This document shows positions 13,806 to 40,995 of a DNA stretch of 64,000 nt, one piece after another. The DNA is taken from contig CALAJV010000008.1 in NCBI GenBank assembly GCA_937922805.1, positions 15,475 through 79,474 on the forward strand, written 5' to 3'. The stretch comes from an uncultured Acidimicrobiales bacterium (GTDB lineage: Bacteria; Actinomycetota; Acidimicrobiia; Acidimicrobiales; SZUA-35). A program made the translations under genes and the position numbers. Under the pieces are notes generated by a model. That model made no database searches. It saw only the letters and a program-made list of their open reading frames with translations, and was not told the DNA's origin. Positions within the stretch are counted from its first letter, which is position 1. The number at the start of each line of letters is the position of its first letter.

Positions 13806-16112
13806 TTAGGTAGCGGGAGCGCTTAGTTGTCTTTCGTCTTCGTCGCCGTAGAGCGGTTCGTTGTCTAGAGCTTCCAACCGGGCGTCGATCTCGTCCAACT
13901 CAAGGGCCATGGTTCGCAGATTTTCCATGGTTGGCAGTGGTTGCGGTGTGTCTTGGTCGGAGTCGGTTTCGATTGCCGCACCGCCGACCGGGGTGATGCC
14001 ATCACCGCTACCTTCGGCCTCATCACCGACGTCAGCCCCATCGCCGTTGCCGGCTTGGCTGTCGGTGTGATCGCTGGCGTCGTCGTTGTCCGAATCGGAC
14101 TCGGCGGCGTCGTCAACTGACATGGACGCAGCCGTCGATTGGTCGGCGGAGTCAGGTGTGGTTGGTTGACTGTCGCTTGGCCGCGAATCCGGAGAGGATG
14201 AGAATCGGTGGAGTGCTCCAGCAGTGAACAAGCCGGGCCCGGTTTTTGCTTGGGCCTCCTGGGCAACATCTTCGTCTTCGTCTGTGTCTGCGTGTTCTTG
14301 GTCTTGTTCGGAGCCTTGATCAGCTTGGGCCGGTTGTTCGAAGCCCTGCTTTCCAAGCTGAGCTACTTCTAAGGTGTCGTCGGCTTCGTCGTTGGCTGGT
14401 TGTTCGTCGCCTGTTGCCGGCTCGTCGTCGGTTCCGTGCTCGATGGCTGGTTGTTCGTCGCCTGTTGTCGGCTCGTCGTCGGTTCCGTGCTCGTTGGCTG
14501 GCTGTTCGTCGTCGGTTCCGTGCTCGTTGCCAGCATTGGCTTCGGAGTCATCGGCAGGGTCTTCGGGTTCATCTGTTGGTTGCTCATATCCGACGTACCC
14601 TGCGTCGGCTAGGTCGACCACGCCGAGATCAACCCACGGTGTCTCGTCTTCTGATTCGTCGTCGCCCAGGTAGCCAACGATGCCGACGTCGACGCCGTGA
14701 TCCTCTGACTCCTCTGACTGTTGGAATTGTTCTGCGTCGCCGAGCTGGCTGTTGTTGGTGGAATTCGCCGAGTCATCGCTGGTCGAGCGTTCCTCATCAG
14801 TTCCGTCACCGTTGTTGGTGTTTGCAGCTTCGAATTCGCGTTCAGCATTGTCCACGTCGGCTACATCAGCGTGATCAGGATCTACATCATCCTCATCGAC
14901 AACTGCAACCCGATCGTCTTCGCCGCTCATAGCTTCAAACTCGCTATCGATATCGTCTTCGGTGCCGGCTCCGACTTGATCGCCATGGCCGCTCATAGTC
15001 TCAAATTCTCCGTCAACATCGTCTTGATCGGTGACGTCCAACTCGTCAACGGCCGCGGCAACATCATCGTTCTCATCAACGCCAGCTTCAATGGTTTCGC
15101 CTCTGTCGGCTACGCCTCGACCGACCTCATCGTCTCTGTCGGCTACGTCTGCGGTGGCTTCATCGTCTGCGTCTTCATCAGCGGTTCGGTCTGCATCAAC
15201 GGTGGCTTCATCGCCTGCGTCTGTCGTGGCTTCATCGTCAGCGTCTTCATCAGCGGTACCGTCTGTATCAACGGTGGTTTCATCGGCTACGTCTTCATCA
15301 GCTGTGTTCTTATCGGTGCTGGCTTGTGCGGTGATGCTCTGTTCAGTTGTGTCGGCTTCGTTCGGGTTCTCAGATTCGAGGGCGTCGCCTTGGGAAGCGT
15401 CAACCGGCAACTCGATCTGATCTTCACTTGCTTCAGCTTGGTCGAAACTACCTGTGTCCTGGTTCGGTGAGCCGCCTTCATTTTCCGGGGCAGCTGCGCC
15501 GTCGACGGAAACGATTTCGTCGTCGCTTTCGTGAAGATCAGAGTCTGTGCTGGTTATGTGGTCGGCGTTGAACTGAGGGTTCGGTGTGGTGGCGTGAGGT
15601 TGGACGACATGGCTCTGTTGAGCAACTTGTTCGTCGTCTGTTGGTTCGGCATCGGCGAGCCATTGCTCGGCATCGACGGTGGGAGCGTGGGCTCGCTCGG
15701 GTGTCGGCTCTGGATTTCCATCGTTGGGGACTTGGGCCATGACGGGCTCGGTTTCCTGACTTATTGTTTCGTAGGTTACTTCATCCGATGCTGAATTTTC
15801 AGCATCTTCGCCGCCATGATTTGTTTCTTGACTTAGCTGGTGATTCGGCTGTTCGTCCGACGTGCTCTGTGGTTGAACTGCTCGTTCGTGGTCAGCGGGA
15901 AGAACGTTTTCTTCTTCTGCCAGTTCGCCTGCGTCCAAGTTTTGGCTTGCTGCTGATGTCGCTGCTTCAAGCTTTTGCGCTCGCCGGCGAGCCAAGATGC
16001 CATTCTTGCCCCACGGCGAGAGGGATTGCACTGCTCGAATCATCCGTTGAACCCAGTTGAGCTTTGGGGTCGGGGTTGAAAAATTCAGATCATTGCTATC
16101 CATCAGTGCCAC
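13806..16112 (-). CDS. Extremely acidic, low-complexity repeat protein (768 aa) with short basic N-terminus and helical C-terminal tail
   Basis: A long uninterrupted ORF with coherent D/E/T/A/Q-rich composition. It contains in-frame tandem repeats, for example the 17-aa unit 'EHGTDDEP(T/A)TGDEQPA' encoded by a 51-bp DNA repeat at about 14394-14530. It lies 18 bp downstream of the lipoprotein gene on the same strand. No recognisable domain. Confidence 0.6.
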   Translation of the reverse strand: MALMDSNDLNFSTPTPKLNWVQRMIRAVQSLSPWGKNGILARRRAQKLEAATSAASQNLDAGELAEEENVLPADHERAVQPQSTSDEQPNHQLSQETNHGGEDAENSASDEVTYETISQETEPVMAQVPNDGNPEPTPERAHAPTVDAEQWLADAEPTDDEQVAQQSHVVQPHATTPNPQFNADHITSTDSDLHESDDEIVSVDGAAAPENEGGSPNQDTGSFDQAEASEDQIELPVDASQGDALESENPNEADTTEQSITAQASTDKNTADEDVADETTVDTDGTADEDADDEATTDAGDEATVDADRTADEDADDEATADVADRDDEVGRGVADRGETIEAGVDENDDVAAAVDELDVTDQDDVDGEFETMSGHGDQVGAGTEDDIDSEFEAMSGEDDRVAVVDEDDVDPDHADVADVDNAEREFEAANTNNGDGTDEERSTSDDSANSTNNSQLGDAEQFQQSEESEDHGVDVGIVGYLGDDESEDETPWVDLGVVDLADAGYVGYEQPTDEPEDPADDSEANAGNEHGTDDEQPANEHGTDDEPTTGDEQPAIEHGTDDEPATGDEQPANDEADDTLEVAQLGKQGFEQPAQADQGSEQDQEHADTDEDEDVAQEAQAKTGPGLFTAGALHRFSSSPDSRPSDSQPTTPDSADQSTAASMSVDDAAESDSDNDDASDHTDSQAGNGDGADVGDEAEGSGDGITPVGGAAIETDSDQDTPQPLPTMENLRTMALELDEIDARLEALDNEPLYGDEDERQLSAPAT

Positions 16113-17432: not shown

Positions 17433-17507
17433 GCCCCTGTGGCGCAGTCCGGTTAGCGCAGTGGACTTTTAATCCATTGGTCCTGGGTTCGAATCCCAGC
17501 GGGGGCA
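17433..17507 (+). tRNA. tRNA-Lys (anticodon UUU)
   Basis: Manual cloverleaf fold. Acceptor gcccctg/cgggggc (one G-U pair). D-stem gcgc/gcgc. Anticodon stem gtgga/tccat with loop c-t-TTT-a-a. 5-nt variable loop. T-arm ctggg-ttcgaat-cccag. Discriminator a. CCA is not encoded. Confidence 0.9.
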
Positions 17508-17822
17508 CTGCCAAATCCTTCTCCTGGAGCGGCTAAAACCGGTAGATCGAGCGTGCCGTCTCGTACCACCAAACCCCCCAAAATCCCGCCAACCCCTCTC
17601 AGTTGTGAGCAGAGATCTGTGTTGTCCCGATTCATGATTGAATTTCATGGGCTTGGAAATCGCGGTACCAGTTTGATCCAGAAAATGCAGCCGCTTAGTA
17701 TCAGAATCTGAGTACCCCACGCCGCTTACTTGCAGATCTGTATCCCGAGGATTCTCTGAAGAAGATGTTCTGGAGCCCCTTTGTCTCGAAGCGTCCCCTA
17801 AGAGATTGGGCCGGACGAAAAA

Positions 17823-32772: not shown

Positions 32773-33072
32773 CCTCACCACAGGCCACCTAGTTACTAGC
32801 GGTTTACATAACCGACACTGAACCGCTCCAATCTGGGATCTCAGGTCTCGGTCGACCGCCATCGGATCGGCTGTATCAGGCTTCGCTAGTCGTTCGGCAA
32901 TGGCGCGTTACCAGTGTCCGTGAAGATCAATCTGGTCGAGGCGCTCGGGGCCTGTACGTGATGCCGTCAGGAGATTTCGAAAAAGGTGAGAATTTTCTCA
33001 AGAAGTCGGGAACTTTTCCGGGTTTGGCTGCGACTAAGGGCTGTTGCCCCCAAACGACGAAGGAAAGCAAAA

Positions 33073-35037
33073 ATGAAGTTTCGAGTTCCGACCACCAGAG
33101 TCACCATCTTTATCGTGGTTGCGCTCGCCTTGTTTAGTACCCCAGCCGTCGCTTGGGCGCTGACTTCGCCGAAGACAACCGTCAAGTTCCCCGCTGAATC
33201 AGCGGAAGTTCATGGCCGACTTCAGGTCGGCGGCACCGCCAACCACCAAGTCGGGGTCGCAGGTATCCGACTCGTACTTCGCAACCTTGATGACAACACC
33301 TACTTCGACGGAAAAACCTGGCAGGACTCTTTCATCAGGTTCGACATTCCAGTTCACAGCCCGGGCGAAACCAAAACCCGTTGGAGCTATTCACTTTCCG
33401 CTAGCAAACTCAAACCTGGCAACTATCGGGCTCGAGCCTTCGCCTACAGCGTTGAAGGTAACGGCGACGGCTTTGGTGGGGACTGGAACGAGTTCACCTA
33501 TCTTGGCCGCTTCAACCCTGCCCTCTACGACACCGAAATCTCTTCTCCATCCGACGGTCAAACTATTTCCGGCCCCATCTCAGTGACCGGCGTCGCCCAC
33601 TCCACCGAGGGCGTCAAATCAGTACGAGTTGTTGTTCGCAACACTGAGACAAACCACTACTGGAACTCGACCAGCGCTGGCTGGCAATCAACCTTCGTCA
33701 CCGTTCAAGCCGAACTAACTGAACCCGGTGGAACTAGTACTAACTGGACAGTGGACATTCCCGCAGATCAGGTAGCACCGGGAACCTATTTCACCCGGGC
33801 CTGGGTTCGCACCGCTGAAGGCCACGGCGACCCGATAGGTCGGGGTCAATCGGCGTTCACCGTGAACGCAGCTGAGGCCCCCATGGTCGTTCAACCGAAG
33901 GCCGAACCTGATCCAATCGCCGTCGACCCGAGCGTCACCGTCGGCGAACCAGTGCCAGATCCAACCACGACCGAACCAACCGCAACCACCGCAAAACCAA
34001 CCACAAAACCAAAGGCAACCCCGGCCACCATCGGATCAACTACAACCACCGCAAAACCAACCACAAAACCAAAGGCAACGCCAGCCACCATCAAGCCAAC
34101 CACAACTACCGCAAAACCAACCACCATCAAGCCAACCACAACCACCATCAAGCCAACCACAACCACCGCAAAACCAACCACTTCAGCCCCGTCGACGTCA
34201 GCTAAGCGCCAACCGTTCGGACAGGGAAACGTTAGTTGGGAACTCGTTGCCTCCGACGATTTCAATGGCAACAAGCTCGACGACAACATGTGGGAATACG
34301 GTTGGTTTAGATCGGCGAGCAACAGCAAATACGATCGACCAGTCAGCGGCGGCGAAACTGCCTGCTACCACACTGACCAAGTGACGTTGGCCGGCGGCGA
34401 ACTCAACCTGACGATGCGACCAACAACGGCGGAAGAGAACGCCTCGGGAGTTTGCAGGAAGAGAGACGGATCAAAAGCCTATTTCGTATCTGGCTACGCT
34501 ACCACCTACAAGAGGTACCAGATTCAGCCGGGAACCTACGTTGAAACTCGCATGCTGATGCCCGGCCAAGGAAATGTTCTGTACAACTGGCCAGCATTCT
34601 GGTCGACCGACATGGACAAGGCCTTCGGCAGCAGGTGGCCCCACAGCGGAGAATTCGATATAGCCGAAATTCTAAAGGGCCAGCCGTGCGCCAACTTCCA
34701 CTACGCAACGTCAGCGGGCGGGCCACACTTGCAAACAGGTAAGCGCTGCTCGACTGTAGCCGCCAACAAGTGGGCGGTGTTCGGAATGAAATGGAACTAC
34801 GACGGCACAGTCGAAATGTTCCATCAGGGCCAGCGGGTACAAGATCGAGGTGACAAAGGAATTTGGAACCTCGACCCGGTTGAGCTTGCAGGCTCGTTTG
34901 CTACCGATTACTCGCACAACATAGCGCTGCAGCATGGCCTTCACGATCCTGCTCATGTCGGATACAAAGAGCCAACTGCGGCAAACCCTCTGACTGTCAA
35001 GTTCGACTATGTAGACGTCTACAAACTCCCGAGGTAG
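33073..35037 (+). CDS. Secreted GH16-family beta-glucanase with two N-terminal Ig-like domains and Thr/Pro/Lys repeat linker
   Basis: ATG at 33073 preceded by aggaaag. Signal peptide 'IFIVVALALFSTPAVAWA'. Two ~100-aa beta-sandwich repeats. Tandem linker 'TTTAKPTTKPKATPATI'. GH16 catalytic block 'WPAFWSTD...WPHSGEFDIAE' (ExDxxE). Confidence 0.85.
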   Translation: MKFRVPTTRVTIFIVVALALFSTPAVAWALTSPKTTVKFPAESAEVHGRLQVGGTANHQVGVAGIRLVLRNLDDNTYFDGKTWQDSFIRFDIPVHSPGETKTRWSYSLSASKLKPGNYRARAFAYSVEGNGDGFGGDWNEFTYLGRFNPALYDTEISSPSDGQTISGPISVTGVAHSTEGVKSVRVVVRNTETNHYWNSTSAGWQSTFVTVQAELTEPGGTSTNWTVDIPADQVAPGTYFTRAWVRTAEGHGDPIGRGQSAFTVNAAEAPMVVQPKAEPDPIAVDPSVTVGEPVPDPTTTEPTATTAKPTTKPKATPATIGSTTTTAKPTTKPKATPATIKPTTTTAKPTTIKPTTTTIKPTTTTAKPTTSAPSTSAKRQPFGQGNVSWELVASDDFNGNKLDDNMWEYGWFRSASNSKYDRPVSGGETACYHTDQVTLAGGELNLTMRPTTAEENASGVCRKRDGSKAYFVSGYATTYKRYQIQPGTYVETRMLMPGQGNVLYNWPAFWSTDMDKAFGSRWPHSGEFDIAEILKGQPCANFHYATSAGGPHLQTGKRCSTVAANKWAVFGMKWNYDGTVEMFHQGQRVQDRGDKGIWNLDPVELAGSFATDYSHNIALQHGLHDPAHVGYKEPTAANPLTVKFDYVDVYKLPR

Positions 35038-35235
35038 TCAAAGCACACGATGCTCGAGAGTTGCGACGGCTCGATGAGCCTTTGAATATGGTGCTGGGTC
35101 GACCGTAAATGTTCGGCTCAGCACCGAAGTCAAAATTTTCTTGAATCCTCGGTCAGGAATCGGTCGAGTTAGGCGTCAAAGGTCTAGACATCTCTCTATT
35201 TCCCGCTGAGATGTTCTAGACGGAGCTGATTCACA

Positions 35236-37353
35236 ATGTCCTTTGGCCTTGACCGCCGTTCACGATTCCCACGATGGCTTGCACTTCTTTTTGTCGCTCT
35301 AGTAGCGGCTCTAGGAGCCGCCGCCGTTGAAGCAAACGTCAATTCCGAACCGGCCCAGGCCGCTACTCAAGTGGTGCCTTGCCACACCAACGTATGCGAC
35401 GTCGGCGCCCAAATCGACAAAGCTTGGGAGCAGAAGCGACACACTCCTGACCCCTGCCATTTCCACACCGAAGGCTCACGAATAATCATCCACAACAACT
35501 GCAAAGCAGACTTCGGCTACACCACAAAACAGCCCACGCAACCAACAAACCAACCACCAACGAACCAACAACCACCAACAAACGAACAACCGACAAACAA
35601 TCAGACGACCGACTCGATACCACAAGGGTCATCAAACGAACCAGGCGCCAACCCCTTCTACTGCGACAAAAACACCTGCGACGTCGGCGCCCAAATCGAC
35701 CAAATCTGGGAACACAAACGACACACCCAAGACGCCTGCCACTACGACACCAACGGCACCCAAATAATCATCCACAACAACTGCAAAGCAGACTTCGGCT
35801 ACACCACAAAACAACCCACACCACCAACAAACCAACCACCGGCTGGATCTGCCGGTGCCACTGATTCGTTCGGCTTGTCGGCCGGGACCGGCACTTCGGA
35901 TGAATTTCCCAAGCCGAATCCCATGTTCTGTAGCGCAGACGACGATTGCGACACTGGCGTCTTTATCGACGAGATTGAGGTAGCAGATCAGCTAAGCGCT
36001 GCAAGCTGTGCCGGCAAATTCTGGCGAGAAAGCACGTTCATCAGAGTAACCGGCGACTGCGAAGCCAATTTCCGCTACACCAAAATTGGCTCATCGGCTA
36101 CACCAGGGTCGGGCTCATCCGGGTCTGGTTCATCGGGTTCTGGGTCAACGTCTCCAGGCGACACGACGGGAACGGTGGTGACATGCAACGAACCAGTCAG
36201 CGCTCCCCTGATGGCCGGGCACAGGCGTGGGACGCACTGCGGCAATCTGAACGAAGCGACATCAAACAGAATTTCGTTCAGCGGTCAGCGATGGCGCAAA
36301 GATAGCGAACGGACCGTGAACAACACCTTCGACGGAAACCACGGCGCAGTCGGCGCTTTCCGAGTGAAATGTTTCTTCTCCCACTTTGATTATGTCGACC
36401 CCGTTGTTCACCCTGGCAACGACGCCGCCTCGCACCTCCATGCCTTCTTCGGAGCAACCACAGTAACCGGAACCGACAATCCGGCGACACTGCGAGCCAA
36501 CAATACTAGTTCAACGTGTCTCGGCGGGACTATCAACGAGTCGGCGTACTGGGTGCCGGCGTTGATGGATAAGACCACCGGAGCGCCGATTGTCCCCGAG
36601 CACGCGTTTATTTACTACAAGACGGGCTACCTACTAGGCAACGGGGCACACAACGCTGATGCAGTCGCCCAAAATCCCGGACTCAAGTACGAAAATATGG
36701 CAAGAGACAAAGCTATCCACGATGTCTTGCCCGACGTTGGAACGGTCGCGACTACGCAACATCACGCCAACCAAATGCCGTGGACATGCAAGGGAGCGCC
36801 TAGTGGCACAATTGCCGGTAAGAACCAAGTTGCGGTCGGCGAATTCACAGCGTCCCGAGTGTTCGGCGAATCCAGCCCGAAACCCAAAAAGACTATTAGG
36901 GAAACGCAGTGTAGAGCCGGCGATCTGTTGGTCATGAACGTTCGGTTCTTCCAGTGCTGGGACAGCAGCCAGAACCACAAGAGCCGAGTTGATTTGACCC
37001 AGATCAGCGGCGGAACCTGTCCAGACAAAGTCATTCCGAAAATCGAATATCAGGTGTACTACCGGCTCCCAGTCCACTCAAACAATTTGCGCCTTTCGTC
37101 TGACAACCCCAGCCCCGAGGTAGGCCAGTTTTCGGGCGAGTCCGTTCATGGCGACTGGATGAACGGATGGGATCCATTGTTCTCCGATGGAGACGACGGC
37201 TGGATACACCAGTGCATCAACTCAAGCCGCGACTGCGCGAACGAGGTACGCAAAAACAGTGACGGTTCCTGGACTCTGCTCGGCCAACTGAACCAAACCG
37301 ACCCTGCTGCTAGTGACGCTCGCCGTCCCAGCAAAGGCGGCCTCACCCACTAG
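35236..37353 (+). CDS. Secreted DUF1996-domain protein with three N-terminal 4-Cys modules
   Basis: Signal peptide 'WLALLFVALVAALGAAAVEA'. Two near-identical modules 'C..N.CDVGAQID..WE.KRHT.D.CH..T.G..IIIHNNCKADFGYTTKQPT' plus a third, diverged copy. Gly/Ser linker. C-terminal 'FRVKCFFSHFDYVDPVVHPGNDAASHLHAFFG' is the DUF1996 signature. Confidence 0.75.
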   Translation: MSFGLDRRSRFPRWLALLFVALVAALGAAAVEANVNSEPAQAATQVVPCHTNVCDVGAQIDKAWEQKRHTPDPCHFHTEGSRIIIHNNCKADFGYTTKQPTQPTNQPPTNQQPPTNEQPTNNQTTDSIPQGSSNEPGANPFYCDKNTCDVGAQIDQIWEHKRHTQDACHYDTNGTQIIIHNNCKADFGYTTKQPTPPTNQPPAGSAGATDSFGLSAGTGTSDEFPKPNPMFCSADDDCDTGVFIDEIEVADQLSAASCAGKFWRESTFIRVTGDCEANFRYTKIGSSATPGSGSSGSGSSGSGSTSPGDTTGTVVTCNEPVSAPLMAGHRRGTHCGNLNEATSNRISFSGQRWRKDSERTVNNTFDGNHGAVGAFRVKCFFSHFDYVDPVVHPGNDAASHLHAFFGATTVTGTDNPATLRANNTSSTCLGGTINESAYWVPALMDKTTGAPIVPEHAFIYYKTGYLLGNGAHNADAVAQNPGLKYENMARDKAIHDVLPDVGTVATTQHHANQMPWTCKGAPSGTIAGKNQVAVGEFTASRVFGESSPKPKKTIRETQCRAGDLLVMNVRFFQCWDSSQNHKSRVDLTQISGGTCPDKVIPKIEYQVYYRLPVHSNNLRLSSDNPSPEVGQFSGESVHGDWMNGWDPLFSDGDDGWIHQCINSSRDCANEVRKNSDGSWTLLGQLNQTDPAASDARRPSKGGLTH

Positions 37354-37410
37354 ATGTGAAACACTCCGCTGGCGTGCGACCTTACATCGCCAGCGTCTAG
37401 ACCTACGGTT

Positions 37411-37444
37411 GATGCCCCACTCAGACGCCAAGGAGTGGGGCATC
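37411..37444. terminator. Perfect 12-bp stem / 10-nt loop hairpin between convergent genes
   Basis: gatgccccactc-agacgccaag-gagtggggcatc. It lies between the stop of 35236-37353 (+) and the stop of 37542-38978 (-). There is no clear U-tract, so intrinsic terminator activity is inferred, not shown. Confidence 0.5.
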
Positions 37445-37470
37445 ACCGATTAGAACCGGTCCCGATAACC

Positions 37471-37506
37471 ATGAATCAGATCATGAATCAGATCATGAAT
37501 CAGATC
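37471..37506. repeat. Tandem 12-bp repeat (ATGAATCAGATC) x3
   Basis: Three exact head-to-tail copies at 37471-37482, 37483-37494 and 37495-37506. They sit in the intergenic region 36 nt from the stop of the RelA/SpoT-domain gene. Confidence 0.9.
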
Positions 37507-37541
37507 AGAATGGGCAACTTGATGAGCCCAGGGGCTGAGAG

Positions 37542-38978
37542 TTACGAGTTCGCCTCTTGGCCCGATATCCAGCGCCGTACTTTGGTTGCCGCCCTTGACG
37601 AGACGTCGTCGAGGATTCGGAGCTCAACCATTCGTTGCAAGGTATGACTGGAAAAGCTCTCCTTCAAACCAGCTGAGTTCGGACTTGGCACACCATCAGG
37701 CGACCGATTCCCCTCGAACGACAAGAGAGCTTTCACTACATACTCAACGTTGCGACGGGTTAGCGATTCCCCCGATGCCCGAGACATATCTCGGGCCGAA
37801 CGGGTAATCCGATTGGCAGTGGCCGTATCCGAATCGGTTGGTTTCGCTCGACGCCAAGCTTCGGTCACATGTTCGAACAACACCGGCCACTTTGTTGGTT
37901 CCAGCAGCGGGAACTGTGGATCGATTCGCTTGAGCTGACGGGCCGCCCCTGGTGCAGTTACGGCTCCCGAACCATCACCGATACGTCGCCCACCAATACT
38001 TCCCTCGGGGGTAGTTGAAGCATCTTGTCTAGCGGCATCAACCATGGGCATGAGATAGCCCTGTCGGCCTGTGCTGATCTCACCGTCGGGGACAGCGTGA
38101 AGCAAGAATCGTTTGAAGCTCCCGTGCCCAAACCAATCCTCGCTTACCTCGGCTCCAAACTCGCGTTGCAATTCCCATGCCAGCGCCGCCAGATCAGTTG
38201 GCCGTTGGAGCGATCGCCAGCGGTTGTCAAGCAACAGGGCGGCGTCAGCGGCTTGGCCTGCGAGCACTTCGGACGCTAACTGGGTTTCGTCGGTTGACTC
38301 TTCAAGAACTTGCTGATCGATGCGATCTAGCTCGGTCCGCAAATCTTCTGCGATCTCGTCAAGCACGGAAAGCAAATCAGCCATACGGGTACTCAATACG
38401 TCAACCAGGGGCGGCAAGGCCCCGTCTTTGCTGTAGGTATCTTCGTGGGTGAGTTCGCCCCAACTGTCCTGAAGAAGGGTTCGGACCTGTAGTTCGCAAA
38501 CGACCGGAACCCCGTCAAGGCCGATACCAAGGTTCACATGCCAACCTCGGTAACCGGAATCTTTCGGCTCGTTTACGTAGTCACGTTCTGACGACGGGTC
38601 GAGCCAGAGCCCAGAGCCTGGTTCACGAGCGAAACCATCGAGCGCCGTTTGGACCATATCGATGTCGCGCACGTTAATGCATGTAACTCGCAACCCAACC
38701 AGATCGTCGAGCACAAGAGGAATATCTTCTACCGTGACGATCCGCCCCTCGTACCGAGGTTGCTGAATCTTACGCCAAGTTCGACGCTTCGATTTTACCC
38801 GACCACTCGTGTTACGGATCCGGGCCAAGTCCCGATCGCTTAGCAGTTCACCAAGAGCATTGGCCAGAGACGCCGACGCCACCTCAAGGGCCGGTTCAAG
38901 AATCGACGCCCGGTACTCGTCATACCAAACGCCGAACTCGGCGTAGCCCAGCTCGGAATGGGCAGCTGTCTGAGTCAC
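37542..38978 (-). CDS. Stand-alone RelA/SpoT-homologue synthetase-domain protein with ~290-aa C-terminal extension
   Basis: Ordered synthetase motifs: 'GRVKS' (res 59-63), 'DLVGLRV' (92-98), 'SGYRGWH' (141-147), 'ELQVRTLLQDSW' (162-173), 'HEDTYSK' (178-184). No HD, TGS or ACT domains. GTG start. The C-terminal extension is Cys-free and helical. Confidence 0.8.
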   Translation of the reverse strand: MTQTAAHSELGYAEFGVWYDEYRASILEPALEVASASLANALGELLSDRDLARIRNTSGRVKSKRRTWRKIQQPRYEGRIVTVEDIPLVLDDLVGLRVTCINVRDIDMVQTALDGFAREPGSGLWLDPSSERDYVNEPKDSGYRGWHVNLGIGLDGVPVVCELQVRTLLQDSWGELTHEDTYSKDGALPPLVDVLSTRMADLLSVLDEIAEDLRTELDRIDQQVLEESTDETQLASEVLAGQAADAALLLDNRWRSLQRPTDLAALAWELQREFGAEVSEDWFGHGSFKRFLLHAVPDGEISTGRQGYLMPMVDAARQDASTTPEGSIGGRRIGDGSGAVTAPGAARQLKRIDPQFPLLEPTKWPVLFEHVTEAWRRAKPTDSDTATANRITRSARDMSRASGESLTRRNVEYVVKALLSFEGNRSPDGVPSPNSAGLKESFSSHTLQRMVELRILDDVSSRAATKVRRWISGQEANS

Positions 38979-39149
38979 GATGGCTTTATCTTAGACCCGG
39001 CACAAGACTCTTGCTGCTCTTCGCTTGAAACCTTGCGTTGAATTCGGGGTGCTGTGTGGCTCCTCAAATCGAACAGATCACCACCACGCCAGGCAGGCTC
39101 AACGATGAACAAAGGTGAGGCCTCGTAGCCGACGCACCCCACGTTACTG

Positions 39150-40715
39150 CTACGGGTTGCGGACCTTGACTAGCTCGATGAGGTCGACAAGGTTTCCACG
39201 GCTTCCTTCGTCGACAGCCCTGAGCCCAAACTCAATCGACGTTTGCCCCGGCAGAAGAACGAACTCGCCGGTATGCCTCGTCCAAGTAAGACCAGATGAT
39301 CTTGTCGCAATCGACCTTCCGTCGAGCAAGATCTGGATTGAGTCTTGACCATCTCGACCTCGGTGGTAGAACGACCATCGATAGGTTGCACCCGGTGTTG
39401 TGTTGACCCGTTGGTAGATCGAGTCGCGACGGACACTGTTTAGCTCGATGAGGTGCCGACCGTCGACAGCGTCGACTCCGTCGTATCCCGACCCCCAAAC
39501 TTCAACCACACCAGTATCGCTCCACCAACCGATGTAGGTGCCAAGCCGACGCTCACCGGCCGGCACATTATGCTGTTCAAACCCGTTGTTGTCCAGCTCC
39601 TGAAACCCTCCGATCGTTGACGGAGGACGGGTTGTCGGCGGTCTTGTCGTCGTTGGGGCCCGGGTCGTCGTAGTTGCCCTAGTTGTGGTCGGCGCCCTAG
39701 TGGTTGAAACTCGGGTAGTCGTTGGCCGTCTCGTTGTTGTTGGCTGCCTGGTTGTTGTTGTTCGTCTTGTTGTGCTTGCCTGTCTCGTCGTGGTCGCCTG
39801 CGATGTTGTTGGCCGAGCCGTAACTTGTCGGGTGGTCACGCTCGATTTTCGAGTCGTGGCCGGCTGGCTACCAACCGATGAATCGGGGATGGTCGTCAAC
39901 GGTTCATCGGATCCTGATTTCGAAGTTGTCGGCAACGGTTTTTCAGTGGAATCAGTGAGACCCTCTACCGACGAATCACGCGGCCCGGTTGACTGACCTC
40001 CGACCGGCTCAGCCGCATCTCCAACACGAAGAGTTGACGAGTCGTCTTGAGATGGTTCTGTTGTTGACGAACTACCTAGTGAACGATCGCTCTCGTCTGA
40101 GGTGCCATCTTCGTTTGCTACACCGGTGATCGAACGGTCATCGTCTGGCTGCGCTGGCGGTTCCGGAATTTCCGGATCGAAATTTGCGACGATCGACTGC
40201 TCATCGACCAAGGCCGAATCGGTTTCGCTCTCGGCTTGACTTCGAAAAGCCAAAAATGCGCTACCGGCAATCAACAGGCCGAGTAGAGCCAGAACACCCC
40301 GACGGACTGATCGCCGGTCAGACGTTGTGTTATAAGACGAACCTGAGATTCGTGTCGGGTCGATAGAACGAATGATCGATTTGGGCTCGCCGCCCACGGT
40401 GCTGGTGCTGCCAGCGTCAAACGAGTCAGACAAGAGCTTCGACATTTTCAGCTCGGCCGGGTTCTTGATTTCGTTTGATTGCTTCGGGATCTCGGCAGTT
40501 ACCTGCGCATCTTCAGATCCAGCTACTAGGTCGACGGTTCTCTCTGACGGTCCACCGTCGACGTCATCTGAAGTTTTTTCGATATCCCCACGATCGACAT
40601 CCGGAGAGTCGTCATCCCCCGGTAAGGCTCGTGGTCCCGCCTGAACCATAGTCTCCAGGGTACCGCTAATTGACACTGACTCTATAGTCGCCTTTTGCCC
40701 CCAGCCACTCGTCAA
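39150..40715 (-). CDS. Single-pass membrane protein with Thr/Arg-rich repeat linker and C-terminal jelly-roll (DUF642/CBM-like) domain
   Basis: Acidic cytoplasmic N-terminus and a TM helix 'GVLALLGLLIAGSAFLAF'. Linker '...TTTRQASTTRRTTTTRQPTTTRRPTTTRVSTTRAPTTTR...'. The C-terminal 'NNGFEQHNVP...YIGWW...HLIELNS...SIYQRVNTTPGATYRWSFYHRGR' resembles DUF642/choice-of-anchor-type domains. TTG start. Confidence 0.6.
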   Translation of the reverse strand: MTSGWGQKATIESVSISGTLETMVQAGPRALPGDDDSPDVDRGDIEKTSDDVDGGPSERTVDLVAGSEDAQVTAEIPKQSNEIKNPAELKMSKLLSDSFDAGSTSTVGGEPKSIIRSIDPTRISGSSYNTTSDRRSVRRGVLALLGLLIAGSAFLAFRSQAESETDSALVDEQSIVANFDPEIPEPPAQPDDDRSITGVANEDGTSDESDRSLGSSSTTEPSQDDSSTLRVGDAAEPVGGQSTGPRDSSVEGLTDSTEKPLPTTSKSGSDEPLTTIPDSSVGSQPATTRKSSVTTRQVTARPTTSQATTTRQASTTRRTTTTRQPTTTRRPTTTRVSTTRAPTTTRATTTTRAPTTTRPPTTRPPSTIGGFQELDNNGFEQHNVPAGERRLGTYIGWWSDTGVVEVWGSGYDGVDAVDGRHLIELNSVRRDSIYQRVNTTPGATYRWSFYHRGRDGQDSIQILLDGRSIATRSSGLTWTRHTGEFVLLPGQTSIEFGLRAVDEGSRGNLVDLIELVKVRNP

Positions 40716-40754
40716 CCAAGGTTGACGTCTTCTACTATGTCAACTAAGGTTGAC
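40711..40754. promoter_or_regulatory. Two GTCAAC-N4-GTTGAC palindromes plus candidate -35/-10 in a divergent intergenic region
   Basis: GTCAACCAAGGTTGAC (40711-40726) and GTCAACTAAGGTTGAC (40739-40754) have centres 28 bp apart. TTGACG (40722-40727), a 17-nt spacer and TAAGGT (40745-40750) form a plausible sigma-70-type promoter. That promoter would give a near-leaderless mRNA for the ATG at 40759. Confidence 0.45.
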
Positions 40755-40995
40755 AAAGATGGACGTGAGTATCGAAGAGCTCCCTCGGCCAGTTGAAACC
40801 GAGGCCGCACTAGCCGCTGTTGTCGCTCTCAGACGGAGCGCCGATCGGCTAGAAGCGGCGGCTGTGCAATGCGCTATCGAGAAGGGTTGGACTTGGCTAC
40901 AAGTAGCCGAAGCTCTCGGAGTTACAAAGCAAGCCGCTCACAAGCGCTACGCCCGACGAGTGAAACAAGCGTCAACCGAGCAAAAGGAAACCTAA
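40750..40995 (+). CDS. Small HTH DNA-binding protein
   Basis: 'GWTWLQVAEALGVTKQAAHKRYARRV' is a sigma-70-region-4/Clp-N-associated type HTH. The start is probably the ATG at 40759. Confidence 0.6.
   Translation: MTKMDVSIEELPRPVETEAALAAVVALRRSADRLEAAAVQCAIEKGWTWLQVAEALGVTKQAAHKRYARRVKQASTEQKET

Follow-up and report, generated by a model that had tools for sequence, protein, structure and literature searches.

A conserved RelQ/RelP-like alarmone synthetase of Acidimicrobiales with a LOTUS-like C-terminal cassette that may respond to RNA

The window, a stretch of 64,000 nucleotides from an uncultured Acidimicrobiales bacterium, encodes a conserved protein in which a RelA/SpoT synthetase domain (RSD) is followed by a divergent OST-HTH/LOTUS winged helix (M1) and a basic helical domain (M2). 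By sequence profile and by predicted fold, the catalytic domain has its nearest relatives in the housekeeping enzymes RelQ and RelP, not in CapRel. The best reading of these data, about as likely as not, is a small alarmone synthetase (SAS) of the RelQ/RelP kind that RNA regulates or tethers. A role in stress signalling coupled to RNA appears more likely than that of an anti-phage toxin. The gene and its parts are laid out as follows, in coordinates of the window:

38979..39149, upstream intergenic region of 171 bp; the preceding gene on the same strand lies at 39150-40715
37542..38978, minus strand, complete open reading frame of 478 codons with a GTG start, encoding the RSD + LOTUS-like + helical domain protein
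38805..38978, minus strand, N-terminal long helix region, residues 1-58; acidic, pI 4.4; counterpart of the RelQ/RelP N-terminal helices
38424..38804, minus strand, RelA/SpoT synthetase core, residues 59-185, with five catalytic motifs (Pfam PF04607)
38301..38423, minus strand, acidic helix, residues 186-226, pI 4.1; aligns with the RelQ C-terminal helix
38256..38300, minus strand, linker 1, residues 227-241; acidic, variable and disordered (pLDDT <50, column identity 0.40)
38046..38255, minus strand, M1, residues 242-311; divergent OST-HTH/LOTUS winged-helix domain by hhalign and AF2
37953..38045, minus strand, linker 2, residues 312-342; disordered, of varying length (pLDDT 34-56, column identity 0.24)
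37563..37952, minus strand, M2, residues 343-472; basic six-helix domain, pI 10.5 (AF2 pLDDT 90-97)
37354..37541, downstream intergenic region shared with a convergent gene; two hairpins and a 12-bp tandem repeat

Membership of the RSH superfamily is supported by the Pfam family RelA_SpoT (PF04607), the sole significant Pfam family in the protein, which covers residues 59-185 (E 9e-14; 52.2 bits, cutoff 27), and by the motifs RxKxxxS, DxxGxR, YxxxH, ExQxRT and HxxYK. The initial annotation had listed a complete set of synthetase-fold motifs, and all five are intact. Their residues (G59-R60-K62-S63, D92/G95/R97, Y143/H147, E162/Q164/R166 and H178/Y182) are invariant in 39 homologues and in two Streptomyces proteins, within a core whose mean column identity is 0.81. 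It had also noted that HD hydrolase, TGS and ACT domains are lacking, and Pfam found none of them here or among the 39 homologues. The protein therefore falls in the SAS class, defined as a synthetase without HD, TGS or ACT/RRM; it is, however, multi-domain. The description of a stand-alone RSH synthetase with a large C-terminal region was borne out, in the form of a conserved three-module protein whose C-terminus is unlike that of CapRel.

Among solved structures, the sequence profile matched RelQ (E 1.3e-16) and RelP (4e-13), with CapRel (7ztb/9erv) at E 0.033 and long Rel at 0.58, and no solved toxSAS other than CapRel appeared at E<=10. Predicted structure gave the same picture: RelP and RelQ occupied Foldseek ranks 1-36 at about 1e-9, over ~210 columns that include the terminal helices, and CapRel stood at rank 49 (8e-5). 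The NCBIfam YjbM equivalog NF053588 scored 53.6 bits, below its curated cutoff of 320, and the protein is for this reason a relative of RelQ/YjbM rather than an orthologue. AF2 places a helix at residues 12-45 with pLDDT >94, and the acidic helix at 186-226 is very highly conserved (column identity 0.88); one may speculate that the latter serves in oligomerisation or autoinhibition.

The region after the synthetase had been characterised as a Cys-free helical extension. The protein has only two cysteines, C100 and C161, and residues 190-478 contain none. Its helical character holds for M2, with six helices, and fails for M1, an alpha/beta winged helix, and for the two disordered linkers. The segment LAALAWELQREFGAEVSEDWFGHGSFKRFLLHAVPDGEIS had been called OST-HTH/LOTUS by eye. 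In support of that call, M1 aligned with the published OST-HTH alignment in hhalign at a probability of 93.7% (score 35.4, 68 columns in register), against a maximum of 9.4% (score 16.7) for 30 column-shuffled controls and 1.1% for the reversed profile. A profile drawn from the RSD family alone reached only 27-54%, and Pfam OST-HTH (PF12872) remained below threshold on M1 (best 12.8 bits, E ~0.1, cutoff 23.8), with sub-threshold matches in 1/39, 2/10 and 3/32 segments, the last set being diverse M1-like segments; it was the sole recurring Pfam family. The AF2 topology of M1, H-b-H-(insert)-H-b-b at pLDDT ~90, fits the LOTUS fold: a winged helix of ~70 residues with a three-helix HTH core, an insert before helix 3 and a two-strand wing. 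M1 is strongly conserved (column identity 0.84), is repeated in tandem up to 10 times, and has homologous repeats in NYN and STAND proteins.

Of the structural comparisons proposed for the C-terminal region, Foldseek yielded no solved match, and it was hhalign that gave LOTUS for M1. Against the PDB, the C-terminal model found nothing below E 0.3 and no LOTUS entry among the best 50, and against the BFVD viral structures nothing below E 0.1. The best TM-scores belonged to the Roquin ROQ winged helix; this and the other winged-helix look-alikes, PadR and MukE, were weak (none below E 0.1) and were discarded, as were acyl carrier proteins, chance-level matches to PDB sequences of M1 and wider M1-superfamily HMM profiles. 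We assign M1 to a divergent branch of OST-HTH/LOTUS winged helices solely from profile-profile comparison.

M2 is strongly basic, with conserved Arg, a column identity of 0.61 and an HTH-like 'ARD..A..G.SLSRR.LDYV.KAL' segment. It found no relative in Pfam, in the PDB or by Foldseek. As candidates, OHA and OST-HTH were rejected at hhalign probabilities of <=2% each, and the 'bacterial domain X' that the OST-HTH paper describes was set aside because that domain is N-terminal and unrelated. An exhaustive HMMER search recovered NYN and STAND relatives of the C-terminus, for which a word-indexed search with the C-terminus alone had returned only same-family fragments. M2 accompanies M1 in the NYN proteins, and the M1+M2 cassette also lies C-terminal to NYN ribonuclease domains, in a family of at least 996 protein clusters. 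Several STAND and SIR2-STAND NTPases (SIR2_2 + nSTAND) likewise terminate in M1 repeats, a pattern typical of conflict systems. Because the cassette is common to NYN RNases, its M1 forms LOTUS-like tandem arrays and its M2 is basic, it appears to point to RNA. In bacteria, OST-HTH is as a rule joined to NYN/DUF88, an architecture with a predicted role in RNA recruitment (PMC2848206).

We propose that the gene product is an active pyrophosphokinase of the SAS type, RelQ/RelP-like, whose most likely products are (p)ppGpp or pGpp, formed from ATP and a guanine nucleotide; alternative products would be ppApp or pyrophosphorylated RNA ends. The predicted nucleic-acid-binding cassette, in which a LOTUS/OST-HTH winged helix and the basic helical domain after it are each attached through a flexible linker, would probably control the activity or the location of the synthetase. 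Its ligand may be RNA or an RNA-protein complex, and binding would switch or position the synthetase; alarmone output would therefore report RNA status. Parallels would be found in long RSH enzymes, whose C-terminal domains bind tRNA and the ribosome, in the inhibition of RelQ by ssRNA and in the RNase HII-fused SAS RelZ. Regulation by ssRNA is known for both RelQ and RelZ, the latter an actinobacterial SAS joined to an RNase (PMC7591505).

The family was detected in ~112 of 185,579 species genomes and is for this reason not a universal Acidimicrobiales gene. A protein identical to the 478-residue product (P0001) is present in public MAG assemblies. The full three-module protein, at 53-70% identity, occurs in more than 120 protein clusters, almost all from Acidimicrobiales, and strong purifying selection acts on each of the three modules. 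Similarity clusters track taxonomy, 27 of 28 Ilumatobacter-labelled proteins falling in a single cluster, and synteny is retained among close relatives. A status as syntenic core gene was rejected, as no other species matched the neighbours seen in the window and only those ~112 species genomes yielded the family. No member was found by contig scan of 2.9 million viral contigs or by tblastn of 72,556 plasmids. The gene looks like a chromosomal gene under selection, unlike a typical defence gene.

Monocistronic transcription is plausible. The 171-bp upstream gap, GTG start, downstream hairpin and 12-bp repeat of the initial annotation are all present, with two hairpins rather than one (37367-37395 and 37413-37442); the repeat, CATGAATCAGAT, runs for 3.6 copies at 37470-37511. 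An Rfam scan of the gene flanks gave no match, and a promoter/terminator scan was uninformative there, with no sigma-70-like promoter match upstream. Clustering of flanking ORFs over ~80 loci revealed no partner: no family occurred in more than 14 loci, and the recurring ones were generic. The earlier observation that no small antitoxin-like ORF adjoins the gene extends to related loci, where no adjacent small ORF is conserved. The toxSAS modules FaRel, FaRel2, PhRel and PhRel2 are defined by an antitoxin encoded in the same conserved operon of two or three genes (PMC7229694), an arrangement that this clustering did not find.

Seven annotated Acidimicrobiales neighbourhoods consist of ordinary metabolism, and their only mobile or defence gene is an unrelated helicase-nuclease in one of them (L001). 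With metabolic contexts in all seven loci and clusters that track taxonomy, the accessory setting suggested at first is not supported. In one locus (L088) an RRM-domain protein adjoins the gene. The few Streptomyces copies are found in variable accessory DNA, the neighbours of two copies being different. One of them (L084) is 105 bp downstream of DUF4297 + HerA (PADLOC E 6e-30 and 8e-219), among FtsK/SpoIIIE, GntR and NUDIX genes, in a region that resembles an integrative conjugative element.

These results bear on the proposal that the protein is a fused toxin and sensor working by the logic of CapRel, in which a toxic synthetase would pyrophosphorylate tRNA or make (pp)pApp, and LOTUS+M2 would inhibit it until phage RNA or protein is bound, leading to abortive infection. 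We consider this possible, at well below the standing of an RNA-controlled SAS. The fusion and the lack of a partner gene have held up, as expected of a single polypeptide like CapRel; catalytic affinity, the seven Acidimicrobiales contexts and absence from the viral and plasmid collections speak against the rest. The PADLOC candidate PDC-S33 matches the catalytic core (E 5.5e-11, 40.5 bits), in a match that spans only profile positions 93-174 of 349, not the full length; a literature search found no paper for 'PDC-S33'. The appearance of the cassette on NYN RNase, SIR2_2 + nSTAND NTPase and RSD is the kind of swapping typical of immune systems, and the small number of species genomes, the proximity of one Streptomyces copy to DUF4297 + HerA and the differing neighbours of the two Streptomyces copies would also suit defence. 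Against this, the catalytic domain is far nearer to the non-toxic RelQ/RelP than to CapRel, with other solved toxSAS undetected. The N-terminal region, in which FaRel2 depends on a basic patch to bind tRNA (bioRxiv 10.1101/2021.04.30.441581), is acidic here, and the C-terminal region has neither a pseudo-zinc-finger nor cysteine. Full-length conservation across an order, clusters that follow taxonomy, metabolic surroundings and the lack of copies in the viral and plasmid collections likewise argue against a toxin. AlphaFold had been suggested as a check for docking of the C-terminal domain on the synthetase active site; AF2 produced no confident contact between the two (pTM 0.43).

A broader reading, also tentative, takes the LOTUS-like and basic helical cassette for an exchangeable RNA-recognition or sensing module placed on RSD, NYN and SIR2-STAND proteins alike, the present protein being either an RNA-gated alarmone synthetase or a toxSAS with a LOTUS sensor. 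In the first of these forms, which shares in that tentative standing, it would belong to a previously unrecognised class, a minimal, ribosome-independent counterpart of long-RSH regulation.

It is unlikely that the protein is an RNA-directed pyrophosphokinase outside defence, in which LOTUS+M2 would recruit a cellular RNA (tRNA, rRNA or an mRNA 3' end) and the RSD would pyrophosphorylate its 3'-terminal ribose; such an enzyme would regulate RNA stability or translation, and in NYN RNases the cassette would likewise guide the enzyme to RNA. RSH-fold enzymes do pyrophosphorylate tRNA CCA ends (PMC11559606; bioRxiv 10.1101/2021.04.30.441581), the cassette is common to ribonucleases whose substrate is RNA, M2 is strongly basic, and flexible linkers could bring bound RNA to the active site. 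The catalytic domain, however, groups with the nucleotide-using RelQ/RelP and is without the basic N-terminal patch. Moreover, the known tRNA-modifying RSHs are all growth-inhibitory members of the toxSAS clade, a poor fit with purifying selection on a gene that has no antitoxin.

The binding partner of an animal LOTUS domain can be a DEAD-box helicase instead of RNA, and extended LOTUS domains of animals bind and stimulate the helicase Vasa. That the cassette is instead a protein-docking module, with M1/M2 anchoring the synthetase at an RNA helicase, a degradosome or a ribosome-associated factor so that alarmone is made locally, is very improbable: the LOTUS-like M1, the helicase binding established in animals and the RRM-domain neighbour in L088 would suit it, but no conserved helicase or other partner gene lies nearby, bacterial OST-HTH is predicted to bind RNA (PMC2848206), and a basic M2 suits nucleic-acid binding.

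A literature search found no paper pairing 'OST-HTH' or 'LOTUS domain' with alarmones or SAS. SAS are usually seen as enzymes of one domain, with transcription and small ligands as the main means of control; RelZ and CapRel are two well-studied exceptions, each of which revealed new biology. A family that joins a RelQ/RelP-like synthetase to LOTUS/OST-HTH would offer a direct route from RNA status to alarmone level, in an order, Acidimicrobiales, that is abundant and largely uncultured in soil, freshwater and marine habitats. Bacterial OST-HTH, whose function is only predicted, would gain a second enzymatic partner beside NYN, and M2 would be a newly defined, previously unannotated basic helical domain that accompanies OST-HTH-like modules. 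If the defence reading were true, the cassette would be a new type of sensor for toxSAS effectors; if the exchangeable-module reading were true, LOTUS domains would for the first time be functionally linked to nucleotide second-messenger signalling.

Among known systems, the closest solved relatives by sequence and fold are the Firmicutes housekeeping SAS RelQ (YjbM/SAS1) and RelP (YwaC/SAS2). They share with the present protein the motif set, including K-[DE]-S-G-Y-R, the N- and C-terminal helices that flank the core, and an acidic N-terminal region. Identity is only 22-26%, however, and the present protein has ~250 additional C-terminal residues, the LOTUS-like domain and M2. RelQ is itself ssRNA-regulated (PMC7591505), and a corresponding control of the present protein by RNA is what we infer.

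Conceptually, the nearest precedent for an alarmone synthetase tied to RNA metabolism is RelZ (MS_RHII-RSD) of Mycobacterium smegmatis, together with the actRel/RelS group; RelZ is likewise an actinobacterial SAS with more than one domain. RelZ combines an RSD with the nucleic-acid-processing RNase HII and is regulated by ssRNA (PMC7591505; PMC5566576). In RelZ the extra domain is an N-terminal enzyme (RNase HII/DUF429), whereas here it is a C-terminal binding cassette without catalytic motifs.

CapRel proteins such as CapRelSJ46 resemble the present protein in architecture: one chain that begins with an RSH synthetase and ends in a non-catalytic domain, with no antitoxin encoded separately. 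Their catalytic domain is only remotely similar, as the profile E-value and Foldseek rank given above attest. The initial annotation had set the candidate sensor apart from the CapRel pseudo-zinc-finger, rightly so, as the Cys-free C-terminus is LOTUS-like and helical. No association with prophages or defence islands was seen in the seven annotated Acidimicrobiales loci or in the viral contigs, and one Streptomyces copy does lie beside DUF4297-HerA.

The C-terminal cassette itself finds its counterpart in bacterial NYN(DUF88/LabA-like)-OST-HTH proteins, in which the region after NYN is homologous to it, and the M1 arrays of the relatives recall the tandem LOTUS arrays of the eukaryotic protein MARF1/limkain b1. 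The present M1 variant differs from the NYN-OST-HTH form in lying below the Pfam OST-HTH threshold, and M2, neither OHA nor 'domain X', is absent from the descriptions in the OST-HTH paper. The N-terminal enzyme differs as well: a PIN-like RNase in NYN-OST-HTH proteins and MARF1, and a RelA/SpoT pyrophosphokinase here.

The gene under study is real as initially annotated, and public metagenome assemblies contain a protein identical to its product.

Window 37542..38978, minus strand: complete open reading frame (ORF), 478 aa, GTG start, encoding a RelA/SpoT synthetase domain (RSD), a putative LOTUS module (M1) and a second C-terminal module (M2)

The sole significant Pfam domain is RelA_SpoT, which covers residues 59-185 (E 9e-14) and scores 52 bits where the cutoff is 27. 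Across an alignment of 38 full-length homologues (54-70% identity), all synthetase motif residues are invariant (G59/R60/K62/S63, D92/G95/R97, Y143/H147, E162/Q164/R166, H178/Y182), and the two Streptomyces homologues, at ~40% identity, keep every one of them. The motifs are thus intact, HD, TGS and ACT domains are found in none of the 39 family members, and residues 190-478 contain no Cys, all as first read. Two longer members, P0173 (731 aa) and P0192 (831 aa), carry 300-390 additional N-terminal residues without a Pfam match.

In sequence comparisons with solved structures, B. subtilis RelQ/YjbM (E 1e-12 with the single sequence, 1.3e-16 with the family profile) and RelP (family profile, E 4e-13) come closest, whereas the profile reaches CapRel at only E 0.033 and long Rel at E 0.58, and no other solved toxic small alarmone synthetase at E≤10. 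Foldseek ranks 1-36 are all RelP/RelQ chains (~1e-9 to 1e-6, ~210 aligned columns including flanking helices); long Rel/RelA follow, with CapRel at rank 49 (8e-5). This affinity argues against the CapRel-like fused toxin-sensor proposed in the initial annotation, which we consider possible but doubtful. RelQ orthology was ruled out (53.6 bits against an NCBIfam cutoff of 320), as was membership in the PADLOC candidate PDC-S33, whose match is confined to an 82-residue catalytic core and reflects domain-level homology. In FaRel2, the tRNA acceptor stem sits on a basic N-terminal patch, whose counterpart in RelP/RelQ is acidic (bioRxiv 10.1101/2021.04.30.441581). The N-terminal region and core of the window protein are both acidic, which points weakly to nucleotide rather than tRNA substrates; that the enzyme serves as an RNA 3'-pyrophosphokinase seems to us quite unlikely.

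AlphaFold2, given the family alignment, returned a full-length model (mean pLDDT 83.5, pTM only 0.43) of three confident bodies with two disordered linkers between them.

Residues 1-58: N-terminal helix; column identity 0.63, pI 4.4; AlphaFold2 helix 12-45 at pLDDT >94
Residues 59-185: synthetase core; column identity 0.81, pI 5.2; all five motifs present
Residues 186-226: acidic helix; column identity 0.88, pI 4.1; pLDDT 50-76
Residues 227-241: linker 1; column identity 0.40, pI 4.1; disordered
Residues 242-311: M1; column identity 0.84, pI 5.1; helix-strand-helix-insert-helix-strand-strand
Residues 312-342: linker 2; column identity 0.24, pI 4.7; disordered
Residues 343-472: M2; column identity 0.61, pI 10.5; six helices

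Modelling residues 239-478 alone recovered both modules (pLDDT 87.8). Judging by their column identities, the C-terminal modules appear to be selected as strongly as the enzyme, and such conservation of the protein speaks against a toxin-sensor. Given the low pTM and long linkers, the AlphaFold2 model does not predict that the C-terminus docks onto the active site; as a prediction this is neutral on autoinhibition, arguing neither for nor against it.

The C-terminus has no significant match in Pfam, in PDB sequences, or by Foldseek against PDB and viral structures. Searching 1.84 billion representatives exhaustively by HMMER, with residues 240-478 as a profile, yielded only 194 clusters, the majority being RSD plus C-terminus proteins of 440-510 aa. 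In six others (P0240, P0252, P0255, P0238, P0270 and P0163), a NYN (PIN-like RNase) domain precedes M1+M2, and P0163 carries ten tandem M1 copies. A search with P0255 showed that NYN + M1 + M2 is shared by at least 996 clusters (coverage 88-98%), a large family of 520-590-aa proteins (P0255, P0240, P0284-P0401) from Acidobacteriota, Chloroflexi and Deltaproteobacteria, publicly annotated as NYN only, the LOTUS-like + M2 tail being unannotated. This swapping of the M1+M2 cassette between effectors is a point in favour of the toxin-sensor. Three STAND NTPases (P0205, P0242, P0177) end in one to six copies of M1 without M2, one having an N-terminal SIR2 domain and another TPRs and six repeats. 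Together with P0163 and P0187, they suggest a divergent, unannotated OST-HTH subfamily serving as a repeat module of conflict-type proteins.

Because bacterial OST-HTH is stereotypically paired with NYN/DUF88 (Anantharaman et al. 2010, PMC2848206), the C-terminal modules were compared by hhalign with OST-HTH sequences taken from Additional file 1 of that paper (39 bacterial, 22 eukaryotic). The M1 superfamily profile (32 sequences) matched at 93.7% probability (score 35.4), with 68 columns in register and W-x-G-x-G-s-F-K-x-F-L falling on y-G-y-x-k-L-s-d-L, against a maximum of 9.4% (score 16.7) for 30 column-shuffled targets and 1.1% for the reversed target. A profile from the RSD family alone reached 27-54%, and the sole Pfam family recurring among diverse M1-like segments was OST-HTH, at E ~0.1. 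From these profile comparisons we conclude that M1 is a putative divergent OST-HTH/LOTUS domain, and the initial by-eye guess therefore appears right. M2 gave at most 2% against OST-HTH; OHA, OST-HTH and the 'domain X' of PMC2848206 were each rejected on comparison. It is a basic helical domain outside these families, has a conserved HTH-like segment and co-travels with M1.

The full-length protein spans >120 protein clusters (53-70% identity). When one genome per GTDB species was scanned by motif, 112 carried the gene; apart from two Streptomyces, nearly all of them belong to Acidimicrobiales (Ilumatobacteraceae, Microthrixaceae, Aldehydirespiratoraceae and unnamed families). Since Ilumatobacter also encodes a long Rel, and Acidimicrobium ferrooxidans appears with Rel only in a 2011 listing, the gene is an additional, non-universal RelA/SpoT homologue (RSH), a distribution that favours a toxin-sensor. 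Average-linkage clustering tracks taxonomy: 27 of the 28 Ilumatobacter-labelled proteins share one cluster, the window protein belongs to another cluster, of 18 members, one containing Microthrix stands apart from both, and the Streptomyces pair is outermost. Two loci labelled Gammaproteobacteria / Candidatus Azotimanducaceae (L058, L081) lie on short MAG contigs and group within Ilumatobacter; they are probably mis-binned rather than cross-phylum transfers. No copy occurs in the viral contigs and plasmids searched, and this absence from mobile elements also weighs against a toxin-sensor.

The 171-bp upstream gap and the downstream elements were found as annotated, the latter including two hairpins in the convergent intergenic region 37354-37541. 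An Rfam scan of the gene flanks, this region included, gave no match.

37367-37395: perfect hairpin, 8-bp stem
37413-37442: perfect hairpin, 10-bp stem
37470-37511: 12-bp tandem repeat CATGAATCAGAT, x3.6

The secretome-rich neighbourhood is seen in the window, but the accessory framing of the gene is not supported. Proteins rich in Thr/Pro, containing repeats and apparently secreted or anchored, lie at 32986-37353 and 39150-40715 (one with Gmad2 Ig-like and glucanase-like regions, one DUF1996 protein with three Cys-motif repeats, and one of 521 aa without a Pfam domain); they have no match in other species and none is syntenic with any of 80 related loci. Seven Pfam-annotated Acidimicrobiales neighbourhoods instead hold metabolic and stress genes (pta-ackA, folate synthesis, hydrogenase, glutamate synthase, GGDEF/EAL, Usp and an RRM protein), contexts that disfavour a toxin-sensor. 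Flanks are shared by all locus pairs at ≥90% identity, 44% at 80-90% and <10% below; no flanking gene family recurs in more than 14 of ~80 loci, and recurring ones are generic. In Streptomyces sp. NPDC048111 (L084, 3095-7389), the homologue lies on the same strand as the anti-phage pair DUF4297 + HerA (PADLOC E 6e-30 and 8e-219) and 105 bp downstream of it, an adjacency that favours a toxin-sensor. FtsK/SpoIIIE, two GntR/UTRA and one NUDIX gene lie nearby; actinomycete integrative conjugative elements typically carry such genes, and the region looks like one of them. The second Streptomyces copy (L086), 86% identical, has entirely different neighbours and a weak Shedu/DUF4263 match 3.4 kb away.

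Within the window, an 81-aa ORF (40750-40995, plus strand) shows weak, sub-cutoff homeodomain-like/Myb-like HTH matches (Pfam E 3e-5 and 1e-4); another gene separates it from the RSD gene, 1.8 kb downstream, and it is not conserved beside homologues. The 14-16 kb stretch owes its strong AT skew (-0.39) to an extremely acidic, D/E/T-rich low-complexity ORF of 768 aa without a Pfam domain (13806-16112, minus strand), and the sole RNA gene found in the 64 kb is tRNA-Lys(TTT) (17433-17508, plus strand).

The reading that the evidence favours, at about an even chance, is a RelQ/RelP-type alarmone synthetase, predicted to be active, in which the LOTUS and basic helical cassette would bind nucleic acid, probably RNA, and gate or localise the enzyme's output. 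Long RSHs read tRNA and ribosome status through C-terminal domains. That the LOTUS domain acts as a protein-docking module is very improbable. Neither the enzyme class nor the LOTUS domain is new; their combination, M2 and the shared cassette are undescribed in the literature searched, where no paper joins OST-HTH/LOTUS to alarmone synthetases and the fusions listed in the OST-HTH paper include none to RelA/SpoT (PMC2848206). For an alarmone synthetase under RNA control there is precedent, as single-stranded RNA inhibits RelQ and also regulates the actinobacterial RelZ (PMC7591505); in RelZ the RSD is fused to RNase HII, whereas in the window protein it is fused to the LOTUS/M2 cassette.
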